From: an uncultured Anaerolinea sp.
GTDB lineage: Bacteria; Chloroflexota; Anaerolineae; Anaerolineales; UBA4823
Direction: 5' to 3'
Assembly: GCA_964416275.1 (NCBI GenBank)
Contig: CAYQDU010000002.1
Span: 1,282 to 65,281 of the forward strand
DNA length: 64,000 nucleotides
Shown: in pieces, positions 2,268 through 52,571 of the stretch
Position numbering within the stretch: the stretch's first letter is position 1
Layout of the letters: every line of letters begins with the position of its first letter
Made by a program: the position numbers and the translations under genes
Notes under the pieces: model-generated
What the model was told of the DNA's origin: nothing
The model's database searches: none
What the model saw: the letters and a program-made list of their open reading frames with translations, nothing else

Positions 2268-2484
2268 GGCTCTCCCAAATTCACCGGGAAAGAAGCTATG
2301 GCTCTTCCGCCGAAGGCGGAAACTTTTCTATGTTTTGGGGAAATTGTGGGGCTATGCTCCACAATTTCCCCAAAACATAACTTTTTCCCCGGCGAAGCTG
2401 GAAGAGTCGAAGTTATCTTGGATGGCCCTTGCGTGGCCGCAAGGACCATCCAAGATAGGAAATCTCGCTTTCAGCGGAAGAGCC
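2268..2484. repeat. cluster of nested palindromic repeats (type-1 element 2300-2408 with inner hairpin 2333-2375; second hairpin 2414-2457; terminal GCGGAAGAGCC arm 2474-2484)
   Basis: Outer arms are GGCTCTTCCGCCGAAGGCGG and CCGGCGAAGCTGGAAGAGTC. The inner 17-bp perfect stem is TTTTGGGGAAATTGTGG/CCACAATTTCCCCAAAA. The same architecture recurs at 31374, 32787, 32906 and 34433. Confidence 0.85.
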
Positions 2485-4324
2485 GCTTTTGCAAACTTCC
2501 GTCCGCCGGCAGCCCGGCCGCTTGCACCGACTGATCAACCGGCGCGGCGTGGCAGGTAGAGCAAACCGCCAGTTCTGGCCGCGCCTGTACCGCCGCCTCC
2601 CGCTGATGGCAGGTCAGGCACCGGCCGTGCATGGCATCCTTATATCCACCTGCTATGGGGTCAAAGGCCGCCTGGCCTTCCACTGGTAGCATATCCACAT
2701 GGCACTCCTGGCAGGCGGCGGCGGCGCGATGCTCGCCCAGATGGCACTCACCGCACGCCGCATTGCCCCCCAGGGCGGCTGTGTGGCGGGTGTGGTCGAA
2801 GATCGAAACGGGAAGGTTGTAATCAGTATGGCACTCGGCGCAGGCGGTGGCCTGGTCGTTGGGTTTCGCCAGGTGGTGGCAGGCGGTGCAGGCTGCGCCT
2901 GGATTTCCGCTTTCGGCATCCTGCTCTGCCAGCCTGGCCTGATGATCGGCGTGCGGAAATACCACACCGATCCCATCCCGGTCGCCGTCGATGGTCAGCC
3001 TCTCCCAGCCTAACGCCCGGCTGACGGGCGTTGGCGATACCATCTTGCCCTGCACCAGCCTCCCCGGCAGGAAGGCTACAGTTAACGCAATCGCCAGCAC
3101 CGCCGCCCCAGAGCGGGCCGCAAAAATGCCGCGCCAGGATGAACTGGTCAGCTGCCCACCTGGCGCGAACGCCGGACGGGCAGCCTCAGGCTGCTTGCCG
3201 GCCGGCAGTTCATCCTGCAGCACCGCCAGCCGCTCGGCAAACAGCAGGTAGACCAGCCCGGCGGCGGCCGGGATGGCAAAGGCGATGACGATCTCCAGCA
3301 GGGCCGGCTGGTAACCGGCTGCGCCGGGCAGGCGCATGGTGAACAGGCTGAGCGACATGCGCTGGCTGAGGATGCCGCCAATCGCCAGCAGGGCGCTGGT
3401 CACCAATCCCTGGGGAGCGCTGCGGATCTTCGCCGACAGCAGCAGCCCGGCTGGCAGCAGCCCGCCCAGCGTGATCTCGACGACAAACCACAGGCTTTGC
3501 CAGGAGCCGTCCAGCCCACCCGGCAGTACGCTGCGCCAGGCCAGGTCGCCCAGGCGCAGCGCCAGGTACAGCCACAGGGCTGCCCCGCCAATCTTTCCCA
3601 AGCGGCTCAGCAGTTCCCCATCCGGCGGGCGATTGAACAGGCGCTGGGCCAGGAAACCCTCCACAATCAGGGCCATCATCCCGGCGGCAATTGCTGATAT
3701 GAAGAACAGCACCGGGATGAGTGGGCTATACCACAGCGGATGCACCCGGTGGGGCATAATCAGGAACAGCGCCCCCAATGACGACTGGTGCAGGGTGGAA
3801 AGCACAATCCCGGCAATCACCAACGGCAAGACGGCATGATGCAGCCAGCCGGCGAGGCGCTGAAATAGGGATCGCTGGAACCAGGGATGCTCCAGGATGA
3901 CCGGAGCAAACTCCAAGATCAGCGCCGTGAGATACAACATCACGCACCAGGCGATCTCGAACATCACCGAATGATGCTGCCAGTGGATGATAGGCATGTA
4001 GATGTGCCAGGGCAGACCCAGGTCGAAGATCAGCGAGATGACAAACGAGCTGTAGCCCAGCAGCGCTAGCAGAATGGCCCGGCGCAGCACCGGCCGGTAG
4101 CGTTCCAGATGGAAGATATACACCATGGCGGCAACGCTGAACCCACCGCCAGAAAGCGCCACAAAGCACAGCTTAAAGGCGATCCACAGCCCCCAGGGAG
4201 CGGCGTCGTTCAATCCAGTCGTCGCACCTAATCCAAGTCCAAAACGCAAAACAGCGGCCACCAGACCAGCAAAGGAGGTAGCCCACAGGATGTCTTTCGT
4301 CCACTTCAAGGCTGTATGTTGCAC
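2471..4324 (-). CDS. NrfD/HybB/DsrP-type polytopic quinone-interacting membrane subunit fused to a C-terminal hexaheme cytochrome c domain
   Basis: 617 aa. The N-terminal ~400 aa are multi-TM with NrfD-like sequence (LWIAFKLCFVALSGGGFSVAAMVYIFHLERYRPV..., HWQHHSVMFEIAWCVMLY). The C-terminus carries six CxxCH motifs: CTACH, CAECH, CGECH, CQECH, CLTCH, CSTCH. Confidence 0.8.
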   Translation of the reverse strand: MQHTALKWTKDILWATSFAGLVAAVLRFGLGLGATTGLNDAAPWGLWIAFKLCFVALSGGGFSVAAMVYIFHLERYRPVLRRAILLALLGYSSFVISLIFDLGLPWHIYMPIIHWQHHSVMFEIAWCVMLYLTALILEFAPVILEHPWFQRSLFQRLAGWLHHAVLPLVIAGIVLSTLHQSSLGALFLIMPHRVHPLWYSPLIPVLFFISAIAAGMMALIVEGFLAQRLFNRPPDGELLSRLGKIGGAALWLYLALRLGDLAWRSVLPGGLDGSWQSLWFVVEITLGGLLPAGLLLSAKIRSAPQGLVTSALLAIGGILSQRMSLSLFTMRLPGAAGYQPALLEIVIAFAIPAAAGLVYLLFAERLAVLQDELPAGKQPEAARPAFAPGGQLTSSSWRGIFAARSGAAVLAIALTVAFLPGRLVQGKMVSPTPVSRALGWERLTIDGDRDGIGVVFPHADHQARLAEQDAESGNPGAACTACHHLAKPNDQATACAECHTDYNLPVSIFDHTRHTAALGGNAACGECHLGEHRAAAACQECHVDMLPVEGQAAFDPIAGGYKDAMHGRCLTCHQREAAVQARPELAVCSTCHAAPVDQSVQAAGLPADGSLQKRLFR

Positions 4325-5101: not shown

Positions 5102-5802
5102 AGCTTGCGTCCCTCCGGCCCATACAGGCTGTGGATCGTTTCGCTGCCGCCCTGGCGGGTAAAATGCCAGGCCACTTCGCTGCTCAGGCGGATGAGCGGA
5201 TACAGCACGCAGTGGGCGACTTTGGTGAAGGGGATCAGCGCCAGCAAGAGCAGCCCGTTCAGCACGTGGAACAGCATCAACCGGTCATAGGGGATCGGGT
5301 TCCAACCGCGCCCGGCCAGAAAGCCAGAGAGGAAGATGTTGAGGATAAACACCAGCAACAGATAGTCCATGCCTTTGCTCAGCCGGCGCGAGCTGAGCAC
5401 ATAGATGCGGTGCAGCAGCAGGAACAGCCCGCAGCCAATCGTCAGCAGGGTCAACCCATCAAGAATTGGCTTGGGGATCGCCATCCAGGCAAACCCCAGG
5501 TTGGCGCGCAGCAGATCCAGGTGGTTGGCCAGGAACAGCCCGGCCAGCAGGATGCCGATGTGAAAGCCATACGAGGCGTAGCTGTACAGTCGGCGGGTCT
5601 GGTGGATGCGCCGCACCGGAAACAGCCAGGATAGCGTTTCGCTCAGGATGCGGGCATAGGGGATGCGCCGGTCGCCGGCCCGGCGAATGGCGGCCGCCAT
5701 GCCCCAGATCGATAAAACGACCAGGCGCAGCAGCCCCAGGATGAGGAGGGTCAGCACAAAGCGGGCTATCGGCCCGGTGGCAAGGGTAAGCCAGGCAGGC
5801 AT
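5098..5802 (-). CDS. NarI/DsrM/HmeC-like dihaem cytochrome b membrane subunit
   Basis: 234 aa with about 5 TM helices. His pairs sit within TM helices (FHIGILLAGLFLANH; FHVLNGLLLLALIPFTKVAH, spacing 18 as in NarI helix V). It lies next to an HdrD/DsrK-like protein. Confidence 0.6.
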   Translation of the reverse strand: MPAWLTLATGPIARFVLTLLILGLLRLVVLSIWGMAAAIRRAGDRRIPYARILSETLSWLFPVRRIHQTRRLYSYASYGFHIGILLAGLFLANHLDLLRANLGFAWMAIPKPILDGLTLLTIGCGLFLLLHRIYVLSSRRLSKGMDYLLLVFILNIFLSGFLAGRGWNPIPYDRLMLFHVLNGLLLLALIPFTKVAHCVLYPLIRLSSEVAWHFTRQGGSETIHSLYGPEGRKL

Positions 5803-8666: not shown

Positions 8667-8722
8667 GGCTCTTCCGGCTTTGCCAAAGTACCGCACCAAA
8701 TCTCGCCTTTGGCGGAAGAGCC
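8667..8722. repeat. minimal copy of the type-1 repeat (arms GGCTCTTCCGGCTTTGCC / GCCTTTGGCGGAAGAGCC without the long inner hairpin)
   Basis: Read directly from the sequence. It is followed (to about 8800) by sequence resembling the M4 tail module (AACCCATGCAGGG). Confidence 0.7.
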
Positions 8723-9884: not shown

Positions 9885-11105
9885 ATGATAAGTTCCGATT
9901 TTATCACCACCTATATTGGAACCTATACCCGGCGCGAGTCATTTGTAGACGGCAAGGCCGAAGGCATTTACATCTATCGCCTGGATCTTCGCTCCGGCGG
10001 ACTGACCCACACCGCCACTGTAACCGGCGAAGGCGCGGTTAATCCGTCATATCTGGCGTTCGGGCCCAGCAAGCGCTATCTCTATGCAGTCAACGAGATC
10101 ACCCGAGGCGCAGGCCCGCATGGGACTGTCAGCGCCTTTGCCGTCGATCCGGTGACCGGCGGGTTGCGTTACCTGAACCAGCAGTCCACGGTTGGGCTAT
10201 CACCGTGCTATGTGAGCGTCGAGCCGGAAGGCCGCTACTGCCTGGCGGCGAACTATGAGAGCGGCAGCGTCAGCGTTTTGCCGATCCGCGAAGACGGGTC
10301 CTTGGGAGAGACAACTGATACGATTCAGTTTTCCGGTTCCGGACCTAATGTCGAGCGACAGGAAGGCCCGCATGCCCACATGATTGCGCCTGCCCCTTAT
10401 GACCGTCTCATTCTGACTATCGACCTGGGCGCAGACCGGCTGATGGCGTTCTATCTCGATCTGGAACGGGGCAGGCTAAGCCCGGCTGCTTCTGCGTGGA
10501 CGCAGTTTCCTCCCGGCGCCGGCCCGCGCCACCTCGCCTTTCACCCCCGCCAGCCATTCGTCTACGTCATCAATGAACTTCAATCCACGGTCACCGTTTT
10601 CCAATATCTGGGGATCTCCCGGCTTCGCCGGGAAAAAAGTACAATTTGGGGATCAGCGCGCAACGCAGCCGCGCAAAGACCTCCAAACACAGAAGAAATC
10701 CCACCTGCAACCGAAGAGCCATATCAGGAAGGGCAGAGCCTGTTTAAGAGGGTACAGGTCATTTCAACCCTGCCCACCGATTTCACCGGACAAAACCTGG
10801 GCGCAGCAATCCGGGTTGCACCCTCGGGGCGCTTTGTCTACGCATCCAATCGGGGTCACAACAGCCTGGCGATCTATGCCGCCGACCCGGAGACTGGCCG
10901 GCTATCCCTGATTGGACACCAGCCAACGCAGGGCGCTGCGCCGCGCGATTTCAATATCGACCCAACCGGCGCACTGCTGCTGGTTGCCAACCAGGACTCG
11001 GACACGCTGGTCACCTTCTGGATCGATCCCGATTCCGGTACGCTGCGGGCAGCCGGGAGCGTGGCGACGCCAACGCCGGTTTGCATCCAACTGGCTGACG
11101 CATGA
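9885..11105 (+). CDS. lactonase-family 7-bladed beta-propeller protein (6-phosphogluconolactonase YbhE-like) carrying a repeat-derived in-frame insertion
   Basis: YIGTYT... GIYIYRLD start, NPSYLAF, SPCYVSV, GPRHLAFHP, repeated propeller blades, and a C-terminal PRDFNIDPTGALLLVANQDSDTLVTF. Start ATG 9885 is preferred over the track start 9840. Confidence 0.8.
   Translation: MISSDFITTYIGTYTRRESFVDGKAEGIYIYRLDLRSGGLTHTATVTGEGAVNPSYLAFGPSKRYLYAVNEITRGAGPHGTVSAFAVDPVTGGLRYLNQQSTVGLSPCYVSVEPEGRYCLAANYESGSVSVLPIREDGSLGETTDTIQFSGSGPNVERQEGPHAHMIAPAPYDRLILTIDLGADRLMAFYLDLERGRLSPAASAWTQFPPGAGPRHLAFHPRQPFVYVINELQSTVTVFQYLGISRLRREKSTIWGSARNAAAQRPPNTEEIPPATEEPYQEGQSLFKRVQVISTLPTDFTGQNLGAAIRVAPSGRFVYASNRGHNSLAIYAADPETGRLSLIGHQPTQGAAPRDFNIDPTGALLLVANQDSDTLVTFWIDPDSGTLRAAGSVATPTPVCIQLADA
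10611..10720. repeat. degenerate type-1 repeat copy inserted in frame inside the lactonase CDS
   Basis: GGGATCTCCCGGCTTCGCCGGGAAAAAAG...TTTGGGG...CCAAACACAGAAGAAATCCCACCTGCAACCGAAGAGCC. The right flank is nearly identical to intergenic copy 34506-34541 (AAACACAGAAGAATTCCCACCTTGGGCAGGAGAGCC). Confidence 0.75.
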
Positions 11106-13151: not shown

Positions 13152-13651
13152 ATCTTCTGCCCTTCCAGTGCCTCTATCAATCCCAGGTAAGGGTTGCTGC
13201 TATCTTTCTCACGCAAACGAGCGGCCATTTTTTCAAGCGCCCGGTTGAACACCTGCCCCAGTTCGTCCGGAATGAAGCCGGCGGCGATGCAGCGCAAGAC
13301 CGGCGCCAGGTGATCGGGCAGTTCTCCGCCTGTCTCCACACCAGCCTGGCGGCAGGCTGCCTGCATCTGCGTCAGGAAGTTGCCCCGCCTGTAATCTTCG
13401 CCCCAGATATGGAAACCGATATAGGGCGGGGTAAGGGGGTCCAGGTCCCAGGTGCGGGTGTACAGTTCCTCCCATTCGCCCAGGCTCAGCCGCCCAACCT
13501 GCGCCAGGAAGCCCAGCAATGCGGCTCGCCGGGGATGCGCCGCCAGGCGACCGGCATCCAGGGTGAGCTGTTCGTGCAGGCCCGCAAACGGATAGCGAAA
13601 GGCGTCGGCATAGATGGCATAGGTCGCATCGCTGATGGTTGGGGTGATCAT
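13148..13651 (-). CDS. narJ: nitrate reductase molybdenum cofactor assembly chaperone
   Basis: 167 aa between narH and narI, with typical NarJ/TorD-like size and position (YAIYADAFRYPF..., LPDHLAPVLRCIA). Confidence 0.8.
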   Translation of the reverse strand: MITPTISDATYAIYADAFRYPFAGLHEQLTLDAGRLAAHPRRAALLGFLAQVGRLSLGEWEELYTRTWDLDPLTPPYIGFHIWGEDYRRGNFLTQMQAACRQAGVETGGELPDHLAPVLRCIAAGFIPDELGQVFNRALEKMAARLREKDSSNPYLGLIEALEGQKI

Positions 13652-13654
13652 GGT

Positions 13655-15163
13655 TCACTCCCCACGCCGCGGCGCTTGCAGGTAGCCCAGCCCGGCCTCG
13701 CCCTTGTGGGCCAGCGGGTCGCGCAGCGCTTCCACCGATAGCTCGCGGTGATAAGGGGGCAGCAAAAAGCGCTCGTCGAGGGTGGGCAGCGTGGTCAGGC
13801 GGTAGATGGCCTCTGCCTGGGCGGCGTCCAGCCCGGCCTCGACCAGCATGGCTTGCGTGGCCTCGTCCACATCACCTTCAACGCTCTGGCGCCGCTTATA
13901 GGCGCGCACCGCCAACAGCTTGCGCAGGATTGTGCGAATCGGGGCTTCATCACCGGCGCTGAACAGGTTTGCCAGGTATTTCACCGGCATACGGGCATCG
14001 TCCAGGTGGCGGAACAGCTCAAAGTCGTGAGCGTCATCGGATAGATCCAGTTTATACAGCCCTTCTTCGATTACGCTGACCACCGGTGAGAGCGGCAGGA
14101 TGTAGAACATCATCGCCAGCGTGCGGAATTCGGGATGCAGCGGCAGGGCCAGCCCCCACTGCTTGACGAACTTATAGACGGGCGATTTCTGGGCAGCCTC
14201 GATCCAGCCGGCATCCAGGCCGCTATCATAAGCGGCGGCGATCACCTGCGGGTCGAACGGGTCGAGGATAGCCGCCCGCTGCGCCGCCGCCAGATCGCGA
14301 GCTGGCCCCATAGCCGCTTCAGGCAGCCGGTCGGCGTCGTACAACAGCACGCCCATGTAGCGAATGCGCCCTACGCAGGAATGGGCGCAGGCCGGCGCCT
14401 GGCCGGTTTCCAGGCGTGGGAAGCACAGGATGCACTTCTCAGACTTGCCAGTGGCCCAGTTGTAATACACTTTCTTATAGGGGCAGGCAGCCACGCACAT
14501 GCGCCAGGCGCGGCACTTGTTCTCGTTCACCAGCACCACGCCGTCTTCGCTGCGCTTATAGATCGCCCCGGATGGGCAGGCGGCCACGCAGGCCGGGTTC
14601 AGACAGTGGTTGCAGATGCGCGGCAGATAGTTGAACACCAGCCGTTCCAGCTCGCTCAACTGCTCGCGCACCGTTTCCGGCAGGCCGTCCAGGTTCAGGT
14701 CGTTCTCGGCATACAGCTTCGACCCGCCCAGATCGTCATCCCAATTGGGGCCGCCCTTAATTTCCATCGGCTGCCCGGTAATCATCGAGATGGGGATAGC
14801 GGTGGGCTGGTCATCGCCGGCCGGGGCGTCGAACAGGTCCTTATACCGGAAAGTGAACGGCTCGTAGTAATCGTCCAGCTCCGGCAAGCTGGGGTTGTAG
14901 AAAAGTTTGAGCAGCCCGCCCAGCCTGGAGTGCAGGCGCAGGCGCAGCGCGCCATCCTTCATCTCCCATCCGCCGCGGAAATGCTGCTGATCTTCCCACT
15001 GGGTTGGGTAGCCGGTTCCTGGGCGGGTCTCGACGTTGTTCCACCACATATATTCCGCGCCCTTGCGGTCTGTCCACAGGTTCTTGCAGGCCACCGAGCA
15101 GGTATGGCAGCCGATACACTTATCCAGGTGGAAAAGCATGCTCATGTGCGCGCGTACTTCCAT
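13655..15163 (-). CDS. narH: respiratory nitrate reductase beta subunit (Fe-S)
   Basis: MSMLFHLDKCIGCHTCSVACKNLWTDRKGAEYMWWNNVETRPGTGYP, CNHCLNPACVAACPSGAIYKRSEDGVVLVNENKCRAWRMCVAACPYKKVYYNW. Canonical NarH. Confidence 0.95.
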   Translation of the reverse strand: MEVRAHMSMLFHLDKCIGCHTCSVACKNLWTDRKGAEYMWWNNVETRPGTGYPTQWEDQQHFRGGWEMKDGALRLRLHSRLGGLLKLFYNPSLPELDDYYEPFTFRYKDLFDAPAGDDQPTAIPISMITGQPMEIKGGPNWDDDLGGSKLYAENDLNLDGLPETVREQLSELERLVFNYLPRICNHCLNPACVAACPSGAIYKRSEDGVVLVNENKCRAWRMCVAACPYKKVYYNWATGKSEKCILCFPRLETGQAPACAHSCVGRIRYMGVLLYDADRLPEAAMGPARDLAAAQRAAILDPFDPQVIAAAYDSGLDAGWIEAAQKSPVYKFVKQWGLALPLHPEFRTLAMMFYILPLSPVVSVIEEGLYKLDLSDDAHDFELFRHLDDARMPVKYLANLFSAGDEAPIRTILRKLLAVRAYKRRQSVEGDVDEATQAMLVEAGLDAAQAEAIYRLTTLPTLDERFLLPPYHRELSVEALRDPLAHKGEAGLGYLQAPRRGE

Positions 15164-23273: not shown

Positions 23274-24013
23274 TGCGCCAGTTCCTTTCGATCATCATCC
23301 TGGGCCGCCAGGCCGCCGTCTTTGCGCACTCGCCATAGATGCACGCTGGTCAACAGGGCGATGCCCAGGGGGATAAAAATGACGTGCAGGGCATAGAAGC
23401 GAGTGAGCGCCGGCTGCCCGATTTCCGGGCCGCCCAGCAGGAAGGACTTGACCACCTGGCCGCCCACCGGCGCATACCCGGCCACGCTGGTTCCCACCGT
23501 GATGGCCCAGTAGGCAAGCTGATCCCACGGCAGCAGATAGCCGGTGAAACTGGCGCCAAATGTCAGCAAGAGCAGCATCACCCCGATCACCCAGTTGAAC
23601 TGGCGCGGCGGCTTATACGCGCCGGTGTAGAACACCCGCGCCATGTGCAGCACCACCACAAGCACCATCAGGTGCGCGCCCCAGCGGTGCATATTGCGCA
23701 GCAGCTGCCCAAACGACACCGCGGTTTGCAGGCGCACAATATCACTGTACGCATGCTCCACGGCCGGGGTGTAGTAGAACATCAGCAGCATCCCGGTCAG
23801 CGTCAGGGCGGCAAAGGCCAGCACAGACAGCACGCCCAATCCGAACGAATAGGCCCAGCGCAGGCTCTTACGACTCACCTTGACGGGGTGGAGATGAAAA
23901 AACAGGCTGCTGGTCATCACCAGCGAACGATCCAGCGGATTATCCGGCCAGCCATGCCGAAAAATCGAGCGCCATACCCGCGATTGGGTCACGTATTGAA
24001 CGACCTGACTCAT
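23270..24013 (-). CDS. cytochrome b6-type (N-terminal four-helix) cytochrome b
   Basis: LRNMHRWGAHLMVLVVVLHMARVFYTGAYKPPRQFNWVIGVMLLLLTFGASFTGYLLPWDQLAYWA ... FYALHVIFIPL. The start overlaps the stop of the upstream oxidoreductase (ATGA at 24010-24013). Confidence 0.9.
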   Translation of the reverse strand: MSQVVQYVTQSRVWRSIFRHGWPDNPLDRSLVMTSSLFFHLHPVKVSRKSLRWAYSFGLGVLSVLAFAALTLTGMLLMFYYTPAVEHAYSDIVRLQTAVSFGQLLRNMHRWGAHLMVLVVVLHMARVFYTGAYKPPRQFNWVIGVMLLLLTFGASFTGYLLPWDQLAYWAITVGTSVAGYAPVGGQVVKSFLLGGPEIGQPALTRFYALHVIFIPLGIALLTSVHLWRVRKDGGLAAQDDDRKELAQ

Positions 24014-26007
24014 GCCACACTCCCTTCATACGCTAAGGTTTCCCGAAAGCGAAAGGCTTCCATCGTGATCGCCCCCGTTGGGCAGCGCCTGGCGCACAAC
24101 CCGCAGCGGGTGCATATCGTATCGTCCTTAATCATGGCCGCCAGAGACGATGAATTACCCGCCGCATCAAGCAGAGCAGCCGCCTCGCCAGCGCCGGCTA
24201 AAGATTGGGCCAAAACGATCTTCAAACAATCCCATGGGCAGACATCTACACAGCCGTTACACAGGATGCACTTCGAGCCGTCGAATACGGTGTTGATGCC
24301 GCACTCCAGGCAGCGCAGCGCCTGGAAGTGAGCGGCATCTTCAGGATAGCTCGATTCGATTTGCGCAAGCCCGGTGCGGCGTTCCAGCGGCGTGGAGGGC
24401 GGCCTGGCGCGCATGTAATCCAGCCAGCCGGCGGGCATCTGGTGATCGGGGATCTCCGTCCAGGCGGTGGATAGCCCGGTTTTCAGCCGGCGGCCCTGCA
24501 GGGTTTCTTCGATGCCCAGGGCGGCAATGTGTCCATCGCGTACGGCGTGGATAATCAGGCGCGGGCCATAGGCGGCGTCTCCCCCGGCAAAAATATTGGC
24601 AACCGAGGTGCGCCCCGTTGCCGGGTCGATTGCTACCAGCCCGCGCGGGGTAACCTGAATATCCTCCGCGCCCTTCAACAGGCTCAGATCGGCGGCTTGC
24701 CCAATCGCCAGGATGATGCTGTCGCACTCCCACACGCGCTCGCTGCCCGGCACAAGGCGCGGGTTAAAGCGCCCGGTTTCATCGAACACACTGGCTACGT
24801 CGATGACTTCCAGCCCGGTCACCCGGCCGCCTGGCCCGATGATCCGCACCGGCCCGTGCCGGGGGTGAATGTGAATGCCTTCTTCCAGCGCTTCGTCTAA
24901 CTCCTGGCGCGAGGCCGGCATTTCGTCCCAGGATTCCAGGGCGATAATGCTTACTTCGGCCACGCCCAGGCGCAGCGCCGTGCGGGCCACATCCAGGGCG
25001 GTATGCACGGCCTCGCTCTGTTCTTCGGCGGCTTCCGCCTTTGGCGCAGCGCTGGTTTTTGCCGCCGGGGCCGCCGCAGCGGCAGCAATCCCCAGCCGCA
25101 GCGCCGTGCGCGCCGCATCCATCGCCACATCGCCGCCGCCCACCACGACCACCCGCTTGCCCAAATCGACGCGGTATCCCAGGTTGTAGTTCAGCAGCAA
25201 GTCCACGGCCGGGATGACCCCATCCAGCGTGACGCCTTCAAGGTTCAACCGGCGGCCCTGCATCAACCCCACGCCCAGGTAGAGGGCGTCGAAGTCCTGG
25301 CGCAACTGCGAGAGCGGAAGATCCACTCCAATGCGGGTCTCAAAGCAGAATTTGACCCCCAGAGAGCGGATCGATTCGACTTCCATATCCATGGCGTCCC
25401 AATCCACCCGGTAGATCGGCACGCCCAGGCGCATCATGCCGCCCGATTTGGAGGAAGCGTCGAACACGGTGACTTCATGTCCCAGCAGAGCCAGGTCGTG
25501 AGCGGCTGTCAGCCCGGAAGGCCCTGCGCCGATCACCGCCACGCGGCCGATGCGCCGTCCCGGCTGTTCGGCCAGCGCGGCCAGGGTTTCCCGCGACCAG
25601 CGGGCCGTTGAGAAATCCATACCCGGCGCGCCCGGCCCATGTCCCAACTGGCTGCCGGCCAGCAGGAACTGCGCCGAGGCCTCTCCGCCAGGCATGCGGC
25701 GCACCGATTCTGGCCCATAGCGTTCGGTCAGGACGCGCTTCAACGGGCGGATGGCAACCGGCTGGCGTTCGGGGCCAAAATCGCCGCGGCGGCATGCGGC
25801 TTCGCACGGCGCGCCGCAAATCTGGCCGCATACCGTAGACAGCGGGTTGGGATCGTGGGCAATCTGATAGCCCAATTCATACTCCCCGCGCCACAGCGCC
25901 TGAAGATAGCCGCGCGCATCGGTTAGCACCGGGCAGGCCGCCTGGCATTTCACCATCTTGCGATAATATTCTGCATCGGGAACAATGACGGGATATTTTG
26001 CTTCCAC
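24010..26007 (-). CDS. GltD/NfnB/SudA-like NAD(P)H-dependent FAD oxidoreductase with N-terminal 4Fe-4S region and C-terminal 2x[4Fe-4S] ferredoxin domain
   Basis: CQAACP...NPLSTVCGQICGAPCEAACRR; VAVIGAGPSGLTAAHDLALLGHEVTVFDASSKSGGMMRLGVPIYR; GGGDVAMDAARTALRLG; C-terminal CLECGI...CILCNGCVDVCP and CTRCGLCARRCP. The track start is GTG 26028. GTG 26007 follows GGAGG with 5-nt spacing and is preferred. Confidence 0.85.
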   Translation of the reverse strand: MEAKYPVIVPDAEYYRKMVKCQAACPVLTDARGYLQALWRGEYELGYQIAHDPNPLSTVCGQICGAPCEAACRRGDFGPERQPVAIRPLKRVLTERYGPESVRRMPGGEASAQFLLAGSQLGHGPGAPGMDFSTARWSRETLAALAEQPGRRIGRVAVIGAGPSGLTAAHDLALLGHEVTVFDASSKSGGMMRLGVPIYRVDWDAMDMEVESIRSLGVKFCFETRIGVDLPLSQLRQDFDALYLGVGLMQGRRLNLEGVTLDGVIPAVDLLLNYNLGYRVDLGKRVVVVGGGDVAMDAARTALRLGIAAAAAAPAAKTSAAPKAEAAEEQSEAVHTALDVARTALRLGVAEVSIIALESWDEMPASRQELDEALEEGIHIHPRHGPVRIIGPGGRVTGLEVIDVASVFDETGRFNPRLVPGSERVWECDSIILAIGQAADLSLLKGAEDIQVTPRGLVAIDPATGRTSVANIFAGGDAAYGPRLIIHAVRDGHIAALGIEETLQGRRLKTGLSTAWTEIPDHQMPAGWLDYMRARPPSTPLERRTGLAQIESSYPEDAAHFQALRCLECGINTVFDGSKCILCNGCVDVCPWDCLKIVLAQSLAGAGEAAALLDAAGNSSSLAAMIKDDTICTRCGLCARRCPTGAITMEAFRFRETLAYEGSVA

Positions 26008-26081
26008 AATTGCCTCCAATATAAGCACAGAATATCAGGCCGGCCGCCTCCCTGCCATCCGTCGCAACGTAGTGGAAGAAT

Positions 26082-26115
26082 GAAAGAAGAGCGATGTCCG
26101 CATCGCTCTTCTTTC
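26082..26115 (-). terminator. 15-bp perfect stem / 4-nt loop hairpin, probable terminator of the narL-like gene
   Basis: GAAAGAAGAGCGATG-TCCG-CATCGCTCTTCTTTC. On the minus strand it is followed by ATTCTTCC. It lies downstream of the response regulator stop (26282) and upstream of the oxidoreductase start. Confidence 0.45.
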
Positions 26116-26149
26116 AAAAGAATTAGGGCTATTCTGGCTTAGGGAAGGC

Positions 26150-26275
26150 GCCTCAGGCTGAACAGCAGCGCTCTCCGAAACCGGGGTGGAGACGCCTGGC
26201 GAGCTTCGCCGAAAGAGATGTTGCGCGGATTTTGTCGCCCTTCGGGCGACAAAATCCGCCTTCGGCGGAAGAGCC
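26150..26275. repeat. mosaic repeat: inverted M4 tail module + H2 hairpin (26226-26258, UUCG-type loop) + type-1 arm GCCTTCGGCGGAAGAGCC
   Basis: CGGATTTTGTCGCCC-TTCG-GGGCGACAAAATCCG is a perfect 15-bp stem. GGTGGAGACGCCTGGCGAGCTTCGCCGAAAGAG is the reverse complement of the module seen at 31764-31797 and 52508-52535. Confidence 0.8.
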
Positions 26276-31298: not shown

Positions 31299-31373
31299 GA
31301 ATTAACTGCTCCTGGCTGAGATCGCTTGACAGATTAAGCTTGTTGCCCGCGGCAGCCGGAAGAACGGACTTTT

Positions 31374-31480
31374 GGCTCTTCCGCCGAAGGCGAGAATTTT
31401 TCTATCTTTGGGGTTGTCGCCTAGCTACGCCAGGCGACAACCCCAAAGACAATTTCTTTCCCGGCGAAGCCGGAAGAGCC
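31374..31480. repeat. full type-1 nested palindromic repeat (inner hairpin 31407-31447)
   Basis: GGCTCTTCCGCCGAAGGCG ... TTTGGGGTTGTCGCCT-AGCTACGCC-AGGCGACAACCCCAAA ... CCGGCGAAGCCGGAAGAGCC. The inner stem is a perfect 16 bp. Confidence 0.85.
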
Positions 31481-31678
31481 GCTTTTTCTGCTGGCGGGTA
31501 ATATTTCCGAGCTATTGTATCTCTTTAAGGGTTCTACGGGATGGGCAATTTGCGGCTATGTTTGCCTTATTGGTTCGAATCTCCCGCGTTGGTTCGCTCT
31601 TGTGGAACCCCCATGTCTCGATTTCCCCGCTCAACCGCCGGGCGCCGCTGCGGGGACCACCCGATTAAACCGTGGAAC

Positions 31679-31818
31679 CGGCATGATGCTCTTCAAGCGA
31701 CCCCCCAAAAGAGATGCTGCGGAGGTTTTGTCGCACTTCGGGCGACAAAATCCAAGATCAATCCTCTTTCGGCAAAGCTCGCCAGCCACCTCCACCCCGG
31801 TTGCATGGGGAGCTAACC
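31679..31818. repeat. mosaic repeat: degenerate H3 + H2 hairpin (31724-31753) + M4 tail
   Basis: Collinear with 52423-52559 (…CTCTTCAAGCG…AAAAGAGATG…TTTTGTCGC…GCGACAAAATCC…CTCGCCAG.CACC.CCACC..GGTTGCATGGG.AGCTA.CC). Confidence 0.8.
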
Positions 31819-31898
31819 TGCTGCGCGCGCCGCTACGCCCAGAGCGGCTATGATACAATTCACTGGTCGATAGAGCCATTTTGCGGCAGGAGGGCAAT

Positions 31899-32315
31899 AT
31901 GAGCGACTTTGCAGAGCAGCGCGAGGCAACGATCCAGCACATCTTAGACACCGCCCACACCATTGCGGTGGTGGGGTTCTCTTCTAAATCCGACCGGGCC
32001 GGGTATTACGTCCCAGCCTATTTGCAGCAGCAGGGCTACCGCATCACCCCAGTGAACCCGGCCTTGCAAGAGGGGCTGGGTCAAACAGCCTACCCAGACC
32101 TGGCAGCCATCCCTGAACCGGTCGATCTGGTGCTGCTGTTCCGGCGCAGCGAGGACGTGCCGCCCTTTGTCGAGCAGGCTATCCAGATTGGGGCCAAAGC
32201 GGTATGGATGCAGTCAGGCATCGTCAACTTGCAGGCGGCTCAGGCCGCCCGCCAGGCCGGTCTGGCGGTGGTGATGGATGCCTGTATGATGGTCGAACAC
32301 CGCTTCCGCAATTGA
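31899..32315 (+). CDS. CoA-binding domain protein (YccU/YneT family)
   Basis: IAVVGFSSKSDRAGYYVPAYLQQQGYRITPVNP ... AKAVWMQSGI. ATG 31899 is preceded by AGGAGGG. Confidence 0.85.
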   Translation: MSDFAEQREATIQHILDTAHTIAVVGFSSKSDRAGYYVPAYLQQQGYRITPVNPALQEGLGQTAYPDLAAIPEPVDLVLLFRRSEDVPPFVEQAIQIGAKAVWMQSGIVNLQAAQAARQAGLAVVMDACMMVEHRFRN

Positions 32316-32325
32316 GCCAACCGCC

Positions 32326-32751
32326 TCACCCGATGGTGAGCAGGATAATCCCGCCCAGGGTCAGCAGCCCTCCCAGGACGGTCTTCCAGGTAAGCGGCTC
32401 GCCGCCCAGCAGCACCCCCAGCAAAGCCCCAAACAGGGGCGAGGTGAAGGCAATGGGCATGACTTTGGTCAGCGGAGCGCCTTTGATGGCGGCGTAGTAG
32501 CACAGCATCCCCACGGACCCGGCTACCACCCCGCCGCCCAGCACCATCATCAGCAGCGCCTTGGGCCCGGCCTGCGGTACGGTCTTCCACTGGGGGAAGC
32601 TGACAATGCCCAGCACGATCAGCGCCACCGCGGTGCGAATGGTGATGCCCATCTGCGGCGAGAGGTTGCCCAGGTGCAGGCCCTTCTTCTCAAAATATCC
32701 CCCCATGCCCCAGGCCATAGCGGTCAGCAAAGCCAGCAGTTGCGGTTTCAT
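32326..32751 (-). CDS. small EamA-domain (DMT superfamily) membrane transporter
   Basis: 141 aa, 4-5 TM. MKPQLLALLTAMAWGMGGYFEKKGL ... is typical of a single EamA domain. Confidence 0.7.
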   Translation of the reverse strand: MKPQLLALLTAMAWGMGGYFEKKGLHLGNLSPQMGITIRTAVALIVLGIVSFPQWKTVPQAGPKALLMMVLGGGVVAGSVGMLCYYAAIKGAPLTKVMPIAFTSPLFGALLGVLLGGEPLTWKTVLGGLLTLGGIILLTIG

Positions 32752-32786
32752 GATTTCTCCTTTTTAGCCATCTATTCGAGAGTTTT

Positions 32787-32993
32787 GGCTCTTCCGCCGA
32801 AGGTGGGGATTTTTCTATATTTTTAGGAAAATGTGCGGCTACGCCGCACATTTCCCCAAAAATAACACCTCTTTCCCGGCAAAGCCGGGAGAGCCAAACT
32901 TTTTTGGCTCCTCCACCGCAGGCGGTTTTTTTCTATATTTTGGGGTTGCTATGCGGCGTAGCCGCATAGCAACCCCAAAATCGGACTGCTCTC
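32787..32993. repeat. two tandem type-1 nested palindromic repeats (32787-32895 with hairpin 32821-32861; 32906-32993 with hairpin 32938-32980)
   Basis: Copy 2 has a perfect 19-bp inner stem, TTTTGGGGTTGCTATGCGG-CGTAG-CCGCATAGCAACCCCAAAA. Copy 1 stem is TTTTAGGAAAATGTGCGG-CTACG-CCGCACATTTCCCCAAAA (2 mismatches). Confidence 0.9.
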
Positions 32994-32997
32994 TTTT

Positions 32998-34293
32998 CTA
33001 TCCGTTTTGCATAAGAGCCGCCGCCCGGCGGCCGATCTCTACGGCGAAGTTGGTGCCGCGATCCCACGGGTAGACCTGGCTCATGCTGGCAAAATACAGG
33101 CCGGGAATGGGCGTCTGGATAGCCGGGATGTTTTTGGAATGATTAACCAACGGGATAGGCTGGGCATAGGCGGTGCGGAACAGCCAGCTTTTGCGCACCC
33201 ACTCGGGTTTGAAATCGGGGTTGATGCGGCTCAGGGCGGGCAGATAGCGGGCCAGCAGCTCGTCCTGGCTGAGGCGGAAATATTCGTGGTCGGTTTCCAG
33301 GTAATCGCCCAGGTACAGGATGTGATCGCCGCCGAAGTATTCCGGCTTGAGGTAGTTGGTATGCTCCACCAGGGCCAGAAAGGGGAACCCAGCCGACTTG
33401 GGCAGGTTGTACCAGTAATAGCCCTGGGTGGAAAGCTGGTGTTTCAAGGCCAGCACCATCACCACCGCGCCCATGCTCTTGAGGGCCAACAGTCCGTCCA
33501 GGTAGGCCGGGGGCAGGTCAGGGGCCAGGCGAGCCAGCAGGGCCGGAGAGGTGGTGGATAACACCTGGTCGAAGCGCTGCTCGGCCCCGTTGACCTGCAC
33601 CGCCAGCCCGCCCTGCGGGTGGGCGGCGATCTGCGTCACCGGGGTCCGAAGCTGGATCTGCACTCCCATCTCTTGCAGGCGAGCGGCAAAGCGGTCTGCA
33701 AAAGCCTGGAAGCCGCCCTTGAACGTGCCAAGCCGGGTGGTGCGGGTCTTGAGGCGGGCCCACATCCAGGCCATGTTGACCTGGCGGGCGTAGCGCTCGC
33801 CAAACTTGCCCACCAGCATCGGCTCCCACATCAGTTCATAGACCCGGTTCCCGGCCCACCGGCGCATCCACTCGTCAGTGGTGTATTTCTCCAGGGCGCG
33901 CCAATTGTTGCCCAGGCGCAGGTACAGCCCCACCAGCCCAAAGCGGGCCTTGTTGATGCCCCAGCCCAGGCCGGGGAACAGGATCGCCTTGAGGATCGAG
34001 TCGAACGGGTAGAATTTGCCCTGGTGGTACATGACGGTATAGGGCCGGGGAAAGATTACGTCGTCTTTCCAGCCCAGTTCATCGATCAGGCCCAGCATGT
34101 GCTGGTCGCTGGCGAACCAGTGGTGGTAGAACTTCTCGACGCTCCACTCCCAATGGGGTTCTTTGAACCCGGCTGCCAGCCCACCCACCTCGCCGCTGGC
34201 TTCGAAGATGGTCACGTTGCGCCCGGCCCGGCGCAGGTCATAGGCCGCGGCCATTCCGCCGATCCCGGCCCCGATGATGGCAATGTTTTTCAT
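32998..34293 (-). CDS. NAD(P)/FAD-dependent oxidoreductase (amine oxidase / phytoene desaturase-like fold)
   Basis: MKNIAIIGAGIGGMAAAYDLRRAGRNVTIFEASGEVGGLAAGF dinucleotide-binding motif, 431 aa. Confidence 0.8.
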   Translation of the reverse strand: MKNIAIIGAGIGGMAAAYDLRRAGRNVTIFEASGEVGGLAAGFKEPHWEWSVEKFYHHWFASDQHMLGLIDELGWKDDVIFPRPYTVMYHQGKFYPFDSILKAILFPGLGWGINKARFGLVGLYLRLGNNWRALEKYTTDEWMRRWAGNRVYELMWEPMLVGKFGERYARQVNMAWMWARLKTRTTRLGTFKGGFQAFADRFAARLQEMGVQIQLRTPVTQIAAHPQGGLAVQVNGAEQRFDQVLSTTSPALLARLAPDLPPAYLDGLLALKSMGAVVMVLALKHQLSTQGYYWYNLPKSAGFPFLALVEHTNYLKPEYFGGDHILYLGDYLETDHEYFRLSQDELLARYLPALSRINPDFKPEWVRKSWLFRTAYAQPIPLVNHSKNIPAIQTPIPGLYFASMSQVYPWDRGTNFAVEIGRRAAALMQNG

Positions 34294-34345
34294 AAAATGT
34301 TCCTTCTCAGTTTTTGGGCGGGTACCACCCCATTAAACTGTAAAG

Positions 34346-34541
34346 CAGGCATGGCGCTCCTCGAGCGCCTTCAAAAAAGATGGCACGTGGACTTTGTCGC
34401 ACGAGGTACGGCGAAATCCCCTGAATATCTCTGGCTCTTCTGGCTTCGCCGGGGAAGAAGGTATGTTTTGTGGAAACTGTGTGGCGTAGCCACACAGTTT
34501 CCACAAAACACAGAAGAATTCCCACCTTGGGCAGGAGAGCC
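34346..34541. repeat. mosaic repeat: H3 hairpin + degenerate H2 + full type-1 element (34433-34541, inner hairpin 34466-34508)
   Basis: The inner stem TTTTGTGGAAACTGTGTGG-CGTAG-CCACACAGTTTCCACAAAA is a perfect 19 bp. It shows a G-to-T change in the conserved TTTTGGGG foot, compensated by C-to-A in the partner arm. Confidence 0.9.
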
Positions 34542-34597
34542 ATATCTCTTTCCTGGGCTTCGAGCGCCCCGGCCATCGGCGCAGGCGCGGGAAGAAT

Positions 34598-35605
34598 TCA
34601 GGCTTCGGATCTGGCCCCGGCCACGGCCTCGTTCCAGTCGATGCCTTTACGCAGCATATAATACCCACCCAGCAGGGTGATGGGCGCCCACAGGGCCACG
34701 TGCAGCACCAGGGTATAGGCCGCAGCAAGGGCTTTATCCACCCCGTAGGCTTGCAGCACGGCAATGCCAGGGGCGTCGAATGTACCAACATAACCCGGCG
34801 CCGAAGGGATGGTCGTCGCCAGATTGACGATCCCATTCATCAGCATCAGGGCAAAGAAGCTGACCTGGAACGGGAAGGCGTGCATCACGAACCAGTATTT
34901 GGCCGTTTCTAGCAGCCAGATTACGATGGAAGTGACAAAGACCATCAAAATCTGGCGCGGCGAGCGCAGGGCCTCCAGCCCGCCCAGGAAGCGCTCAGCC
35001 AGGGCCAGCAGCTTCTGGCGGAAGCGGTGCGGAACGAACAGGTTTACCATGCGCCGGAACAACCCCAGGCTGGTTTCGGGGAACATGGCAGCCAGCAGAA
35101 AGACCGCCAGCGCCCCCAGGAACACGAATGTGCCGATCAGGGCCAGGCTGCGGATGTCGCCCACAAAGCCAGAGCTGTGGGTCAGGCGGGCCAGTTCGGG
35201 TAGGTTGATGAACACGAAGCCCAGCATGACGACTCCGTCAAAGACCCGCTCGACGATGATCGTCGCCAGCGAGGCCGAGATCGGCACATCTTCTTCGCGT
35301 TTCAGCACCACCGCCCGCAGCACCTCGCCGGCCCGGGCCGGCAGGATGTTGTTGCCGAAGTAGCCAATCGTCACAGTGGGGAACAATCGCCCGGTGGGGA
35401 TCGACTTGAGCGGTTTGAGCAGGTGGTGCCAGCGCCAGGCGCGGGCCCACACGCCCACAAAATACACGGCGATGCCCGGAAGCAACCACAGGTAGTTGGC
35501 CTGGGCCATCGCTGCGCCCAGTTCGTTCAGGCGCAGCCCGCGCAGGGCCAGCCATAGAAAGACCAGGCTAATCAGAACTCCTAACCAGAATTGCCAGCGT
35601 TTCAT
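34598..35605 (-). CDS. flippase-like / lysylphosphatidylglycerol synthase TM-region family membrane protein (UPF0104)
   Basis: MKRWQFWLGVLISLVFLWLALRGLRLNELGAAMAQANYLWLLPGIAVYFVGVWARAWRWHHLL is a typical N-terminus for this family. 8 or more TM helices. Confidence 0.7.
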   Translation of the reverse strand: MKRWQFWLGVLISLVFLWLALRGLRLNELGAAMAQANYLWLLPGIAVYFVGVWARAWRWHHLLKPLKSIPTGRLFPTVTIGYFGNNILPARAGEVLRAVVLKREEDVPISASLATIIVERVFDGVVMLGFVFINLPELARLTHSSGFVGDIRSLALIGTFVFLGALAVFLLAAMFPETSLGLFRRMVNLFVPHRFRQKLLALAERFLGGLEALRSPRQILMVFVTSIVIWLLETAKYWFVMHAFPFQVSFFALMLMNGIVNLATTIPSAPGYVGTFDAPGIAVLQAYGVDKALAAAYTLVLHVALWAPITLLGGYYMLRKGIDWNEAVAGARSEA

Positions 35606-37742: not shown

Positions 37743-37878
37743 CCCTCCCCCCGCCCCCTCGCCGAGATGAAGGTGGACTTGCGCCCCAGTGAAAATACAG
37801 GCTGGGGAGTTGGATCGGCAAAGCCGATCCAACTCCCCAGCCCAGCTATCCTCTCTCATCTGAAAGGGGAGAGAGGGG
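37743..37878. terminator. nested palindromic element exactly filling the convergent intergenic gap; the inner perfect 17-bp hairpin (37802-37840) is a likely bidirectional terminator
   Basis: CTGGGGAGTTGGATCGG-CAAAG-CCGATCCAACTCCCCAG. Outer imperfect inverted arms are CCCTCCCCCCGCCCCCTCGCCGAGATGA and TCTCATCTGAAAGGGGAGAGAGGGG. The flanking stop codons are at 37740-42 and 37879-81. Confidence 0.7.
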
Positions 37879-43313: not shown

Positions 43314-43862
43314 CGGCCAGTCTGGGGAGTGAAAAGCGGTGCAACCTGGCGGAGGAGCACCCACCGATAGGGCCGCAAGCCATTTATTGTGCATTTGACC
43401 TGTATATACGATTTATTGATGCACCCGATCGTTAATCTAAAAATATTGCAACCTACCGATTCTGGGACAACCAATTTTGGGACAAATGCCGAAATAGTCT
43501 TGTCAGCGCAGGAAAAATGCGCAATAATAATTATGACTTAAGTACTACTACAATGGATTACCTGGCAAATTCAGTTCGGTGCAAGCCATCCCTAGAACAA
43601 TAAGCCAGCCGGACACCAGGGGGCTGCCACAGGCGTAAATCATTCCATGCACTATCGCTTGCCTGTCGATTGACGCGCCGAGAAATTCGGTGCAGTGTTT
43701 GCATCTCAACCTGCAAGATGTTACGGATCGAAGTGTGAGGCCAAACGACAAGAGAGCCAAGAACCCAAAATAAAAAGGCCCCCTTTTACCGTGGAGGCGT
43801 TGATCCTCAGGATAAGATTGGTCGCTGTACGAGATGATTGTAAGCCTGAGAGGAGCCAATAG

Positions 43863-43895
43863 CGAAACCGGCCGCGTGGTCGGTTTCGTTTGTTT
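43863..43895 (+). terminator. rho-independent terminator-like hairpin + T-tract
   Basis: CGAAACCGGCC-GCGT-GGTCGGTTTCG followed by TTTGTTT. Confidence 0.5.
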
Positions 43896-44275
43896 AATCA
43901 TCTACACCTGCATCCTGATCCATCAACTGTTCCGTTTTACCGTGATGTCCGATCTTACCGGTACTGGCTTAAACTGAAAAGAGCCGGGTTGTCGGAAGCA
44001 TCCAGGAGACAGTTAATATTGGTAGCGCATCGCTTGATCCCGACAATTGCGTGCAAATCTTACCCGATTATCCAATGACCCCACGACACCTGGCTGTGTC
44101 GGGAGGGCGGAGCGCGAAAAGCAAAAACCTCTACGCTGACCATAAAATTTATTCGACTTGAATGATGTTCCATCCTTCAAGTCTTCATGTGGATGCAATG
44201 ATCCATAGGCGGTATTCTGGTCGCTAACAAGATTCCAGTCTGGGGGGAGGAATAGCCTATGGGGAGCAAATAGCG

Positions 44276-44305
44276 AAACCGGCCACAGATGGCCGGTTTT
44301 TTAAT
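44276..44305 (+). terminator. rho-independent terminator-like hairpin + T-tract
   Basis: AAACCGGCC-ACAGAT-GGCCGGTTT followed by TTTAATTT. The 5' flank GGAGCAAATAGCGAAACCGGCC is nearly identical to the flank of the 43863 hairpin. Confidence 0.55.
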
Positions 44306-52380: not shown

Positions 52381-52559
52381 GGCTCTTCCGGCTTCGCCGG
52401 GAAAGAAGAGCTACTGTGGAACAGGCATGGCGCTCTTCAAGCGCCATCAAAAAGAGATGTTACGTGGATTTTGTCGCCCGAAGTGCGACAAAATCCACGA
52501 GTAATCCTCTCTGGGCAAGGCTCGCCAGTCACCCCCACGGTTGCATGGGAAGCTACCCT
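52381..52559. repeat. mosaic repeat: type-1 left arm + H3 hairpin (52427-52447) + H2 hairpin (52465-52497) + M4 tail
   Basis: GGCTCTTCCGGCTTCGCCGGGAAAGAAG; ATGGCGCT-CTTCA-AGCGCCAT; TGGATTTTGTCGCCC-GAAG-TGCGACAAAATCCA; CTCGCCAGTCACCCCCACGGTTGCATGGGAAGCTACCC. Confidence 0.85.
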
Positions 52560-52571
52560 GTTTGAAAACGC

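Follow-up and report, generated by a model that had tools for sequence, protein, structure and literature searches.

The locus at positions 32787 to 32993 of a 64,000-nucleotide stretch of DNA from an uncultured Anaerolinea sp. (contig CAYQDU010000002.1; this whole stretch is called the window below) carries a tandem pair of hairpin-forming repeats, and it raises the question of what such a repeat is and of how the two arms of its inner hairpin can differ from copy to copy and still pair. Our results indicate, with good confidence, that these repeats, which we call type-1, are lineage-specific MITEs (miniature inverted-repeat transposable elements) that derive from, or are mobilised in trans by, a DDE transposase of the ISL3 family. 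The repeats themselves are genuine. A preliminary description of this DNA had recognised a mosaic, nested and palindromic family, and our analysis of the window sequence and of the alignment confirmed this observation, with every listed copy present and placed as described. We also extended it, as a copy at 10612-10720, an outer element at 2268-2484 and the 8-bp duplications that flank the elements had been overlooked.

The insertion of a type-1 element can be read from a lactonase gene (PF10282; 9885..11105, + strand), which carries the copy 10612-10720 in frame and in reverse orientation, and with it 39 additional residues. Together with its two flanking duplications, ATATCTGG/ATATCAGG (7/8 identical), this copy spans 10604..10728 on the - strand, and it scores 92.2 bits with R1, a covariance model made from five full copies. 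When we deleted positions 10612-10728, that is the 109 nt of the element and 8 nt of duplication (117 nt, or 39 codons), the gene gave a gap-free alignment of 144 nt with the orthologs L138 and L139. At the protein level, the 39-residue block is missing from 9/9 aligned lactonase homologs; the lactonase of the window has 406 aa, and the 120 listed homologs, which include by name one from an Anaerolineae bacterium, have 366-400 aa (mostly 366-376 aa). The frame stays open despite the insert, and in the predicted structure the inserted residues have a pLDDT below 50 and lie between two beta strands of a propeller that is otherwise mostly of high confidence. An identical lactonase protein was found in four other samples. 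The hairpin of this copy has decayed, with 7/20 non-Watson-Crick positions and a DNA fold z-score of -1.35, and the decay is strongest on the mRNA strand. The situation resembles that of the Rickettsia palindromic elements (RPE), where a palindromic selfish element also lies in frame within a gene, leaves the frame open and encodes a peptide outside the conserved fold (PMC10969869). Unlike for the RPE, we have here a single case; the RPE sequence is unrelated, and ends of ISL3 type with an 8-bp duplication are not what defines an RPE.

The ends of the elements are imperfect terminal inverted repeats of ~23 bp, with GGCTCTTCCG..CGG at both ends; the termini read GGCTCTTCC...GGAAGAGCC and, taken as an inverted repeat, are identical at 17 of 23 positions. 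Direct duplications of 8 bp flank the copies 34433 (8/8 identical), 2300 and 10612 (7/8 each) and 32787, as well as the outer element 2268 (6/8 each). For 8-mers placed 109 nt apart, the window-wide chance of at least eight matches is 4.7e-5, that of at least seven 1.3e-3 and that of at least six 1.1e-2. The duplicated sites have 25-37% GC, as against 61% GC for the window. What we found is thus a small non-coding element with terminal inverted repeats and with a target-site duplication (TSD) that was verified against an empty site. The defining traits given for bacterial MITEs are inverted repeats, duplications that become fainter as copies age, targets rich in A/T, transcripts with a stem-loop, and insertions in frame (PMC10969869).

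We assigned these MITEs to ISL3 because their GGCTCTTC ends are combined with an 8-bp duplication. We know of no other insertion sequence (IS) family that combines the two. In the ISL3 family, inverted repeats starting GGCTCTT(C), as does GGCTCTTCC here, go together with an 8-bp direct target duplication. For example, in ISArsp7, an ISL3 member, the inverted repeats read GGCTCTTCGCGG.. and the direct repeat measures 8 bp (PMC6305408), and a 187-bp MITE of Microcystis with terminal repeats GGCTCTTCG and 8-nt duplications has been attributed to ISL3 transposases with the same ends (PMC11448079). Like the ISL3 insertion sequences, ISArsp7 (PMC6305408) and the Microcystis aeruginosa MITE (PMC11448079), the elements of the window have termini that begin GGCTCTTC and an 8-bp TSD; they share with such systems a non-coding, mainly intergenic nature with occasional genic insertions, multiple copies (here counted within the window), and a predicted stem-loop. 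Several features nevertheless set them apart from the known ISL3-type systems. Their ninth base is C and not G, and their inverted repeats are longer (~23 bp) and contain mini-hairpins with a GAA loop; they measure 100-114 bp, whereas the Microcystis MITE measures 187 bp, and the copies of the latter were reported to be identical, whereas the inner hairpin varies here by compensated changes. Finally, the host is an Anaerolineae-like member of the Chloroflexota, and none of the 50 open reading frames of the window encodes a cognate transposase.

Within the 64-kb window, we count at least six type-1 elements of 107-114 nt, one nested outer element, one minimal copy and two arm-only fragments, and at least eight family members lie in it. 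Full elements are 100-114 nt long and the minimal copy 56 nt; they hold no conserved open reading frame (ORF), since the frames differ between copies and several contain stops. The terminal-arm pattern GGCTCTTCCGSCNNNGSCGG, with at most two mismatches, matched 13 times in the window against 0.27 matches expected from shuffles, and 0/100 shuffles equalled this count. The type-1 copies align end to end after reverse-complementing 34433-34541. With R1, the five full copies score 92-120 bits (E 1e-22 to 1e-30), with six strong matches in 64 kb, and the model also recovers the stretch 32928-32990 as a partial copy, as well as the minimal copy (8667-8722). When the intergenic copies were folded as single-stranded DNA, the z-scores of their inner hairpins were -5.9 to -8.9.

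The individual copies document both nesting and the capture of gene ends. The 109-nt copy 2300..2408 (+; R1 116.6 bits; hairpin of 24 pairs including one G.T) lies inside another family member, between the TSD copies GAAGCTAT (2292-2299) and GAAGTTAT (2409-2416), which agree at 7/8 positions. Excising it with one duplication restores a 100-nt member in the opposite orientation with the same arms: this outer element, 2268..2484 (-), flanked by AATTTTGC/GCTTTTGC (6/8), then shows its left and right arms and its own 21-bp hairpin, CTATCTTGGATGG..CCATCCAAGATAG, with a DNA minimum free energy of -30.1 kcal/mol. Its terminal arm gives the last three codons and the TGA stop (2471-2484) of an NrfD/multihaem cytochrome gene, 2471..4324(-). 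In the same way, the right arm of copy 32906 gives the last six codons and the TAG stop (32998-33019) of an amine-oxidase gene, 32998..34293(-). This copy is the second of the tandem pair. The first, 32787..32895 (+; 109 nt; R1 117.2 bits), is flanked by AGAGTTTT/AAACTTTT (6/8), and five short-read contigs from other samples break within it. The second, 32906..33019 (+), has a perfect 21-bp hairpin at 32936-32981 and an R1 partial match of 42.3 bits; its loop is inverted (GTA, not TAC), its left arm has diverged and its right arm has diverged strongly. The copy, which had been described as ending at 32993, probably extends to ~33019.

Copy 31374..31480 (+; 107 nt; R1 112.8 bits) has the distal stem TTGTCGCCTAGC and a hairpin of 21 pairs with one A.C mismatch. 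Copy 34433-34541 (-; R1 120.2 bits) has the TSD ATATCTCT on both sides (8/8; 34425..34549 with the duplications) and sits inside a repeat of a second family, type-2. As noticed in the preliminary description, the foot of its hairpin has switched in both arms, to TTTTGTGG/CCACAAAA; one terminal pair is compensated as well, from C-G to T-A (columns 9/101). The minimal copy 8667..8722 (-; 56 nt; R1 40.1 bits) has kept both arms, and its inner hairpin is mostly deleted. The two arm-only fragments were found with the arm pattern: the left arm GGCTCTTCCGCCGAAGGCGG at 26256..26275 (-) is fused to a type-2 hairpin, and the JGI contig L116 terminates exactly there; the right arm GGCTCTTCCGGCTTCGCCGGGAAAGAAG at 52381..52412 (+) abuts a type-2 repeat. 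The type-2 repeats are ~150 nt long with a hairpin of their own, GGATTTTGTCGC..GCGACAAAATCC, and occur at 31669-31830, 52413-52560, 34337-34432 (with 34550-34600) and 26179-26255. Three of their four copies lie directly upstream of a gene in the same orientation, and 26179-26275 is a type-2 copy with the type-1 left arm fused on.

Is the family found elsewhere? The covariance model R1 finds the copies of the window and, when applied to 1.03 Mb of unrelated DNA from bacteria and viruses, a single element, in an Anaerolineaceae metagenome-assembled genome (MAG), L064 (CAZSFD010000007.1, region 5130-5291). This related element of 110 nt scores 60.6 bits and has arms with mini-hairpins, a TTTGGGG/CCCCAAA foot, a further variant of the distal stem (TATGAGTGG..), a GCGAAGC apex and the flanks CTTATTTT/CTTATACA (5/8). 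Adjoining it, a solitary hairpin (5247-5291) has a GGGGG/CCCCC foot and a different distal stem; the hairpin module can therefore occur without arms. In a genome-collection scan with GGCTCTTCCGSCNNNGSCGG as a loose pattern, L064 was the only real relative among the matches listed, the others having arisen by chance in coding DNA that is GC-rich. In five other samples, contigs of this species (98.9-100% identical) either have these copies too or break off within them (at 26257, 31375, 32858/32864 and 34477), which is how multi-copy repeats break short-read assemblies; in none of these contigs did we see a substitution within an element, or an empty site. The source organism is contained in JGI sample 3300022666.

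Other searches returned nothing that we would add to the family. A metagenome scan with the left arm and lead-in gave 0 matches, in a collection that evidently does not hold the source organism, and one with the 19-nt left arm gave 19 matches, essentially all by chance; the 16 matches among viral contigs were all chance coding matches. MITE-encoded peptides (an 8-row profile and the concatenated frames of copy 2300) had no matches in the protein database, and a plasmid BLAST with one copy found nothing relevant. The identical 20-nt arm GGCTCTTCCGCCGAAGGCGG occurs in two metagenome contigs, L156 (260-400, twice in tandem) and L149 (201-240), where it is followed by CGCTCAAAG; neither belongs to the type-1 family, and what they carry could be one end of an ISL3-type relative from a different organism. 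No ISL3-like structures were found beside the arm-like matches in the fetched loci, where the adjoining ORFs of L149, L156 and L157 encode MurJ, DNA ligase or unknown proteins. A tandem mini-hairpin repeat of ~141 nt in a Candidatus Kuenenia MAG (L026, 6900-7200), with GAA/GCA loops and containing GGCTCTTCCGGCGCAGCCGG, is GC-rich and was set aside as an unrelated family.

The second part of our question concerns the inner hairpin. This body of the element is a hairpin of 21-24 bp, longer than the 16-19 bp first reported, whose A/T-rich foot is conserved in sequence and whose distal stem is conserved in pairing only. We measured covariation on a MAFFT alignment of the five full copies that was not fitted to the structure. 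Of the 22 pairs of the inner helix, 13 have changed in both partners, and pairing holds in 93.6% of cells. Across 500 column shuffles, not one reached any of the five measures, and sliding the partner column by 1-3 positions left 38-52% paired; the compensatory changes that had been pointed out in the stems are therefore far above chance, and independent drift of the two arms cannot give such covariation. Between the four intergenic full copies, identity is 0.54-0.57 in the distal arms, 0.58 in the unpaired spacer and 0.84-0.86 in the terminal arms. Within these four copies, 45/48 distal positions (~94%) are Watson-Crick, so that the distal stems do differ and stay paired as had been described, but not perfectly, each intergenic copy having 0-2 non-Watson-Crick pairs. 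All six departures from Watson-Crick pairing found in the five intergenic type-1 copies are transitions (G.T or A.C). The loops read TAC or GTA in most copies; the claim that the apex is always CTACG or CGTAG does not hold for copy 2300 (loop TAT, apex CTATG) or copy 10612 (loop TGC, apex CTGCG). The inversion of the type-1 loop, which is TAC in some copies but GTA in one other, shows that events at the DNA level occur here. Compensated evolution of the hairpin is thus genuine. The covariation had been taken as evidence of selection on an RNA or single-stranded DNA structure; this is one reading among several, and homogenisation or selection at the level of the element would explain it equally.

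The model that we tentatively prefer explains the covariation through a cruciform. A transposase would recognise the ~23-bp imperfect terminal inverted repeats and insert the element at A/T-rich sites by an 8-bp staggered cut, leaving the 8-bp direct duplications that are observed. The insertions that we see lie between genes, in other repeats (nested), at the 3' ends of genes, where they created new stops, and once in frame in the lactonase gene. The palindrome would be the element's own requirement in cis: as a cruciform, or as a folded single strand, it would bring the ends together for synapsis, and an extruded palindrome could be what joins them because the 109-bp element is shorter than the DNA persistence length. 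Only lineages with complementary arms would then keep multiplying; the distal stem would need no more than pairing, and the foot and the lead-in would be conserved. Template-switch correction at the hairpin, which could also flip the apex, may help to keep the arms identical. If the element is co-transcribed, the hairpin would form in the mRNA too, where a function for the host is hypothetical. A stronger form of this model, which we consider rather unlikely, would make the inner palindrome an obligatory cis structure for moving an ultra-short ISL3-type element, with the one-strand GAA-loop mini-hairpins marking the active strand. If true, the compensated stems and flipped apices would record transposon-level selection and hairpin-templated copying, and this would be a structure-dependent step so far undescribed for ISL3/DDE MITEs.

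Several observations weigh against the account of an ISL3-type MITE with a cruciform. The 50 ORFs of the window include no ISL3 or other transposase, and for this reason the partner IS is deduced from the termini and the duplication length only. The comparison of presence and absence between strains that the preliminary description had proposed showed no polymorphism among the 99-100% identical contigs from other samples, and our copy count covers the 64-kb window only. Two copies have no convincing duplication, namely 31374, whose flanks GGACTTTT / GCTTTTTC agree at 4/8 positions (a weak TSD), and 8667, where the TSD is unrecognisable (AAGATCAA / AGAAGTTC, 2/8). In both subterminal mini-hairpins, CCGCC-GAA-GGCGG as well as CCGGC-GAA-GCCGG, the GAA loop lies on one and the same strand. 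This is not expected of a plain double-stranded inverted repeat, and it gives a hint of a strand-specific single-stranded form; the same-strand loops fit neatly with none of selection, arm conversion or a host RNA function. Finally, copy 32906 has diverged arms and no duplication, and yet its hairpin is perfect (21/21), so that maintenance in situ fits better than pure selection on a transposing lineage.

The alternative that fares best starts from this kind of maintenance. It holds that the covariation is mutational and not selective: while the DNA is replicated, template switching within a strand or the correction of mismatches in the hairpin would keep long perfect palindromes perfect, any change in one arm being either lost or transferred to its partner; the element would still be a MITE, and the paired changes would carry no information on function. 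We regard such arm conversion as possible, though somewhat unlikely. Apex inversions, which would be its strand-switching signature, are visible both in the TAC/GTA loop of type-1 and in the apex of type-2, where the central 9 nt CACTTCGGG are exactly reverse-complemented to CCCGAAGTG between 31726-31754 and 52465-52493, with flanks that are direct repeats. The perfect hairpin between the decayed arms of copy 32906 agrees with it, as do the compensated change in the terminal arms of copy 34433, a distal stem that has diverged like the unpaired spacer (0.54-0.57 vs 0.58 identity) and an inconsistent RNA strand preference. However, the coding copy 10612 has lost its pairing (7/20 positions), and correction is therefore not unconditional; the left and right arms are stably different across copies, so homogenisation is not element-wide; and the sample comprises ~8 hairpins only.

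A second alternative, distinctly unlikely in our view, is that the host keeps the hairpins for an RNA or DNA job, such as mRNA 3'-end protection, RNase III processing or termination/attenuation, the elements having been domesticated like REP/BIME or Correia elements. Most copies do lie between same-strand genes, and as RNA their hairpins are very stable (-50 to -71 kcal/mol); the left-arm mini-hairpin with its T-run scores terminator-like, in the presumed transcripts of the five intergenic type-1 copies, 5/6 of the non-Watson-Crick positions would become G.U, and the perfect hairpin of the decayed copy 32906 could be counted here as well. On the other side, elements are found pointing either way with respect to transcription, the sense strand being the more stable one in 4/8 only, and the large hairpin, whichever strand is read, has its T-runs 5' and its A-runs 3', for which reason we rejected it as an intrinsic terminator. 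None of the elements matches Rfam at gathering score: in the whole window, only two c-di-GMP-II riboswitches elsewhere reach the threshold, and 31300-34650 gave only far sub-threshold matches (miRNA-precursor models and one lncRNA model). In addition, the elements are absent from the 40 kb around the lactonase gene, the sole locus compared, in two related genomes with lactonases ~70-74% identical. The Correia elements of Neisseria (CREE/NEMIS) duplicate TA and have unrelated inverted repeats, and experiments have addressed their processing by RNase III, their promoter activity and their IHF sites. What they and other bacterial MITEs share with our elements is a size of ~100-150 bp, inverted repeats at the termini and a duplicated target, along with the fold-back of the whole element, insertion near genes and, presumably for ours, co-transcription (PMC10969869).

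It is highly improbable that the elements are REP/REPIN-like or of IS200/IS605 type and mobilised in single-stranded form through a Y1 (HUH) transposase (RAYT or TnpA), a kinship that the preliminary description had raised: their structure-conserved hairpins with variable stems, the CTAC/GTAG in the loop, the one-stranded GAA-loop mini-hairpins and the tandem and inverted clustering at 32787/32906 would suit it, but Y1 transposases duplicate nothing, and we find 8-bp duplications, an exact 109+8 insertion, ~23-bp terminal inverted repeats with the ISL3 signature, a GTAG that is in the loop and not at the hairpin base, and no Y1_Tnp-like ORF among the 50 of the window. The REP/BIME/REPIN and RAYT systems and the SMAG-type REPs resemble our elements in their intergenic hairpins, subfamilies with compensated stems and mosaic clustering; unlike them, REPs are 20-40 nt long, have GTAG at the 5' stem base and no target duplication, and depend on Y1, features that were checked and do not hold here. 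Similarly, IS200/IS605-type elements carry subterminal hairpins and insert 3' of a short motif; they have neither terminal inverted repeats nor a duplication, and both are present here. It is because of the ISL3-type termini and the 8-bp TSDs that we call the elements MITEs and not REP/RAYT-like. Integron attC-like sites were considered too and rejected, there being no integrase and no cassette array.

A number of other features were recorded in the window. Between a polyphosphate kinase gene and the next ORF lies a long, perfect hairpin at 37778-37866 (GGGCTGGGGAGTTGGATCGGC TTT GCCGATCCAACTCCCCAGCC); it does not have the GGCTCTTCC arms, reaches 33.9 bits with R1 through palindromy only, and was rejected as a family member. 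A perfect hairpin of 13 bp at 26081-26116 (AAAGAAGAGCGATG CGGA CATCGCTCTTCTTT), upstream of the gene 24010..26028(-), adjoins a type-2 repeat and could represent either a terminator or one more module of repeats. Two c-di-GMP-II-GAG riboswitches at 43784-43882 and 44182-44292 (+; 41.6 and 53.4 bits) form a tandem pair upstream of a gene cluster for polysaccharide biosynthesis (Wzz/ParA-like protein, glycosyltransferases, Wzy_C). Finally, a contig of a different sample, L112, agrees with the window at ~99.9% identity with the exception of ~180 nt at 13485-13661, which hold >60 differences and several indels; this patch, located where the nitrate-reductase delta-like and beta genes meet, has the appearance of a recombination tract.

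In conclusion, the identity of the type-1 repeats as ISL3-type MITEs explains the breaks in short-read assemblies, the repeat-derived ends of two genes and the 39-residue insert of the lactonase. As a class, MITEs are already known, and the compensated evolution of the hairpin is the one aspect worth following. Paired arm evolution in a DDE-type MITE represents a clean, small system in which palindromy selected for transposition can be set against arm conversion at the level of replication, and a complete genome would let these models be separated by comparing the decay of the hairpins with the age of the copies.

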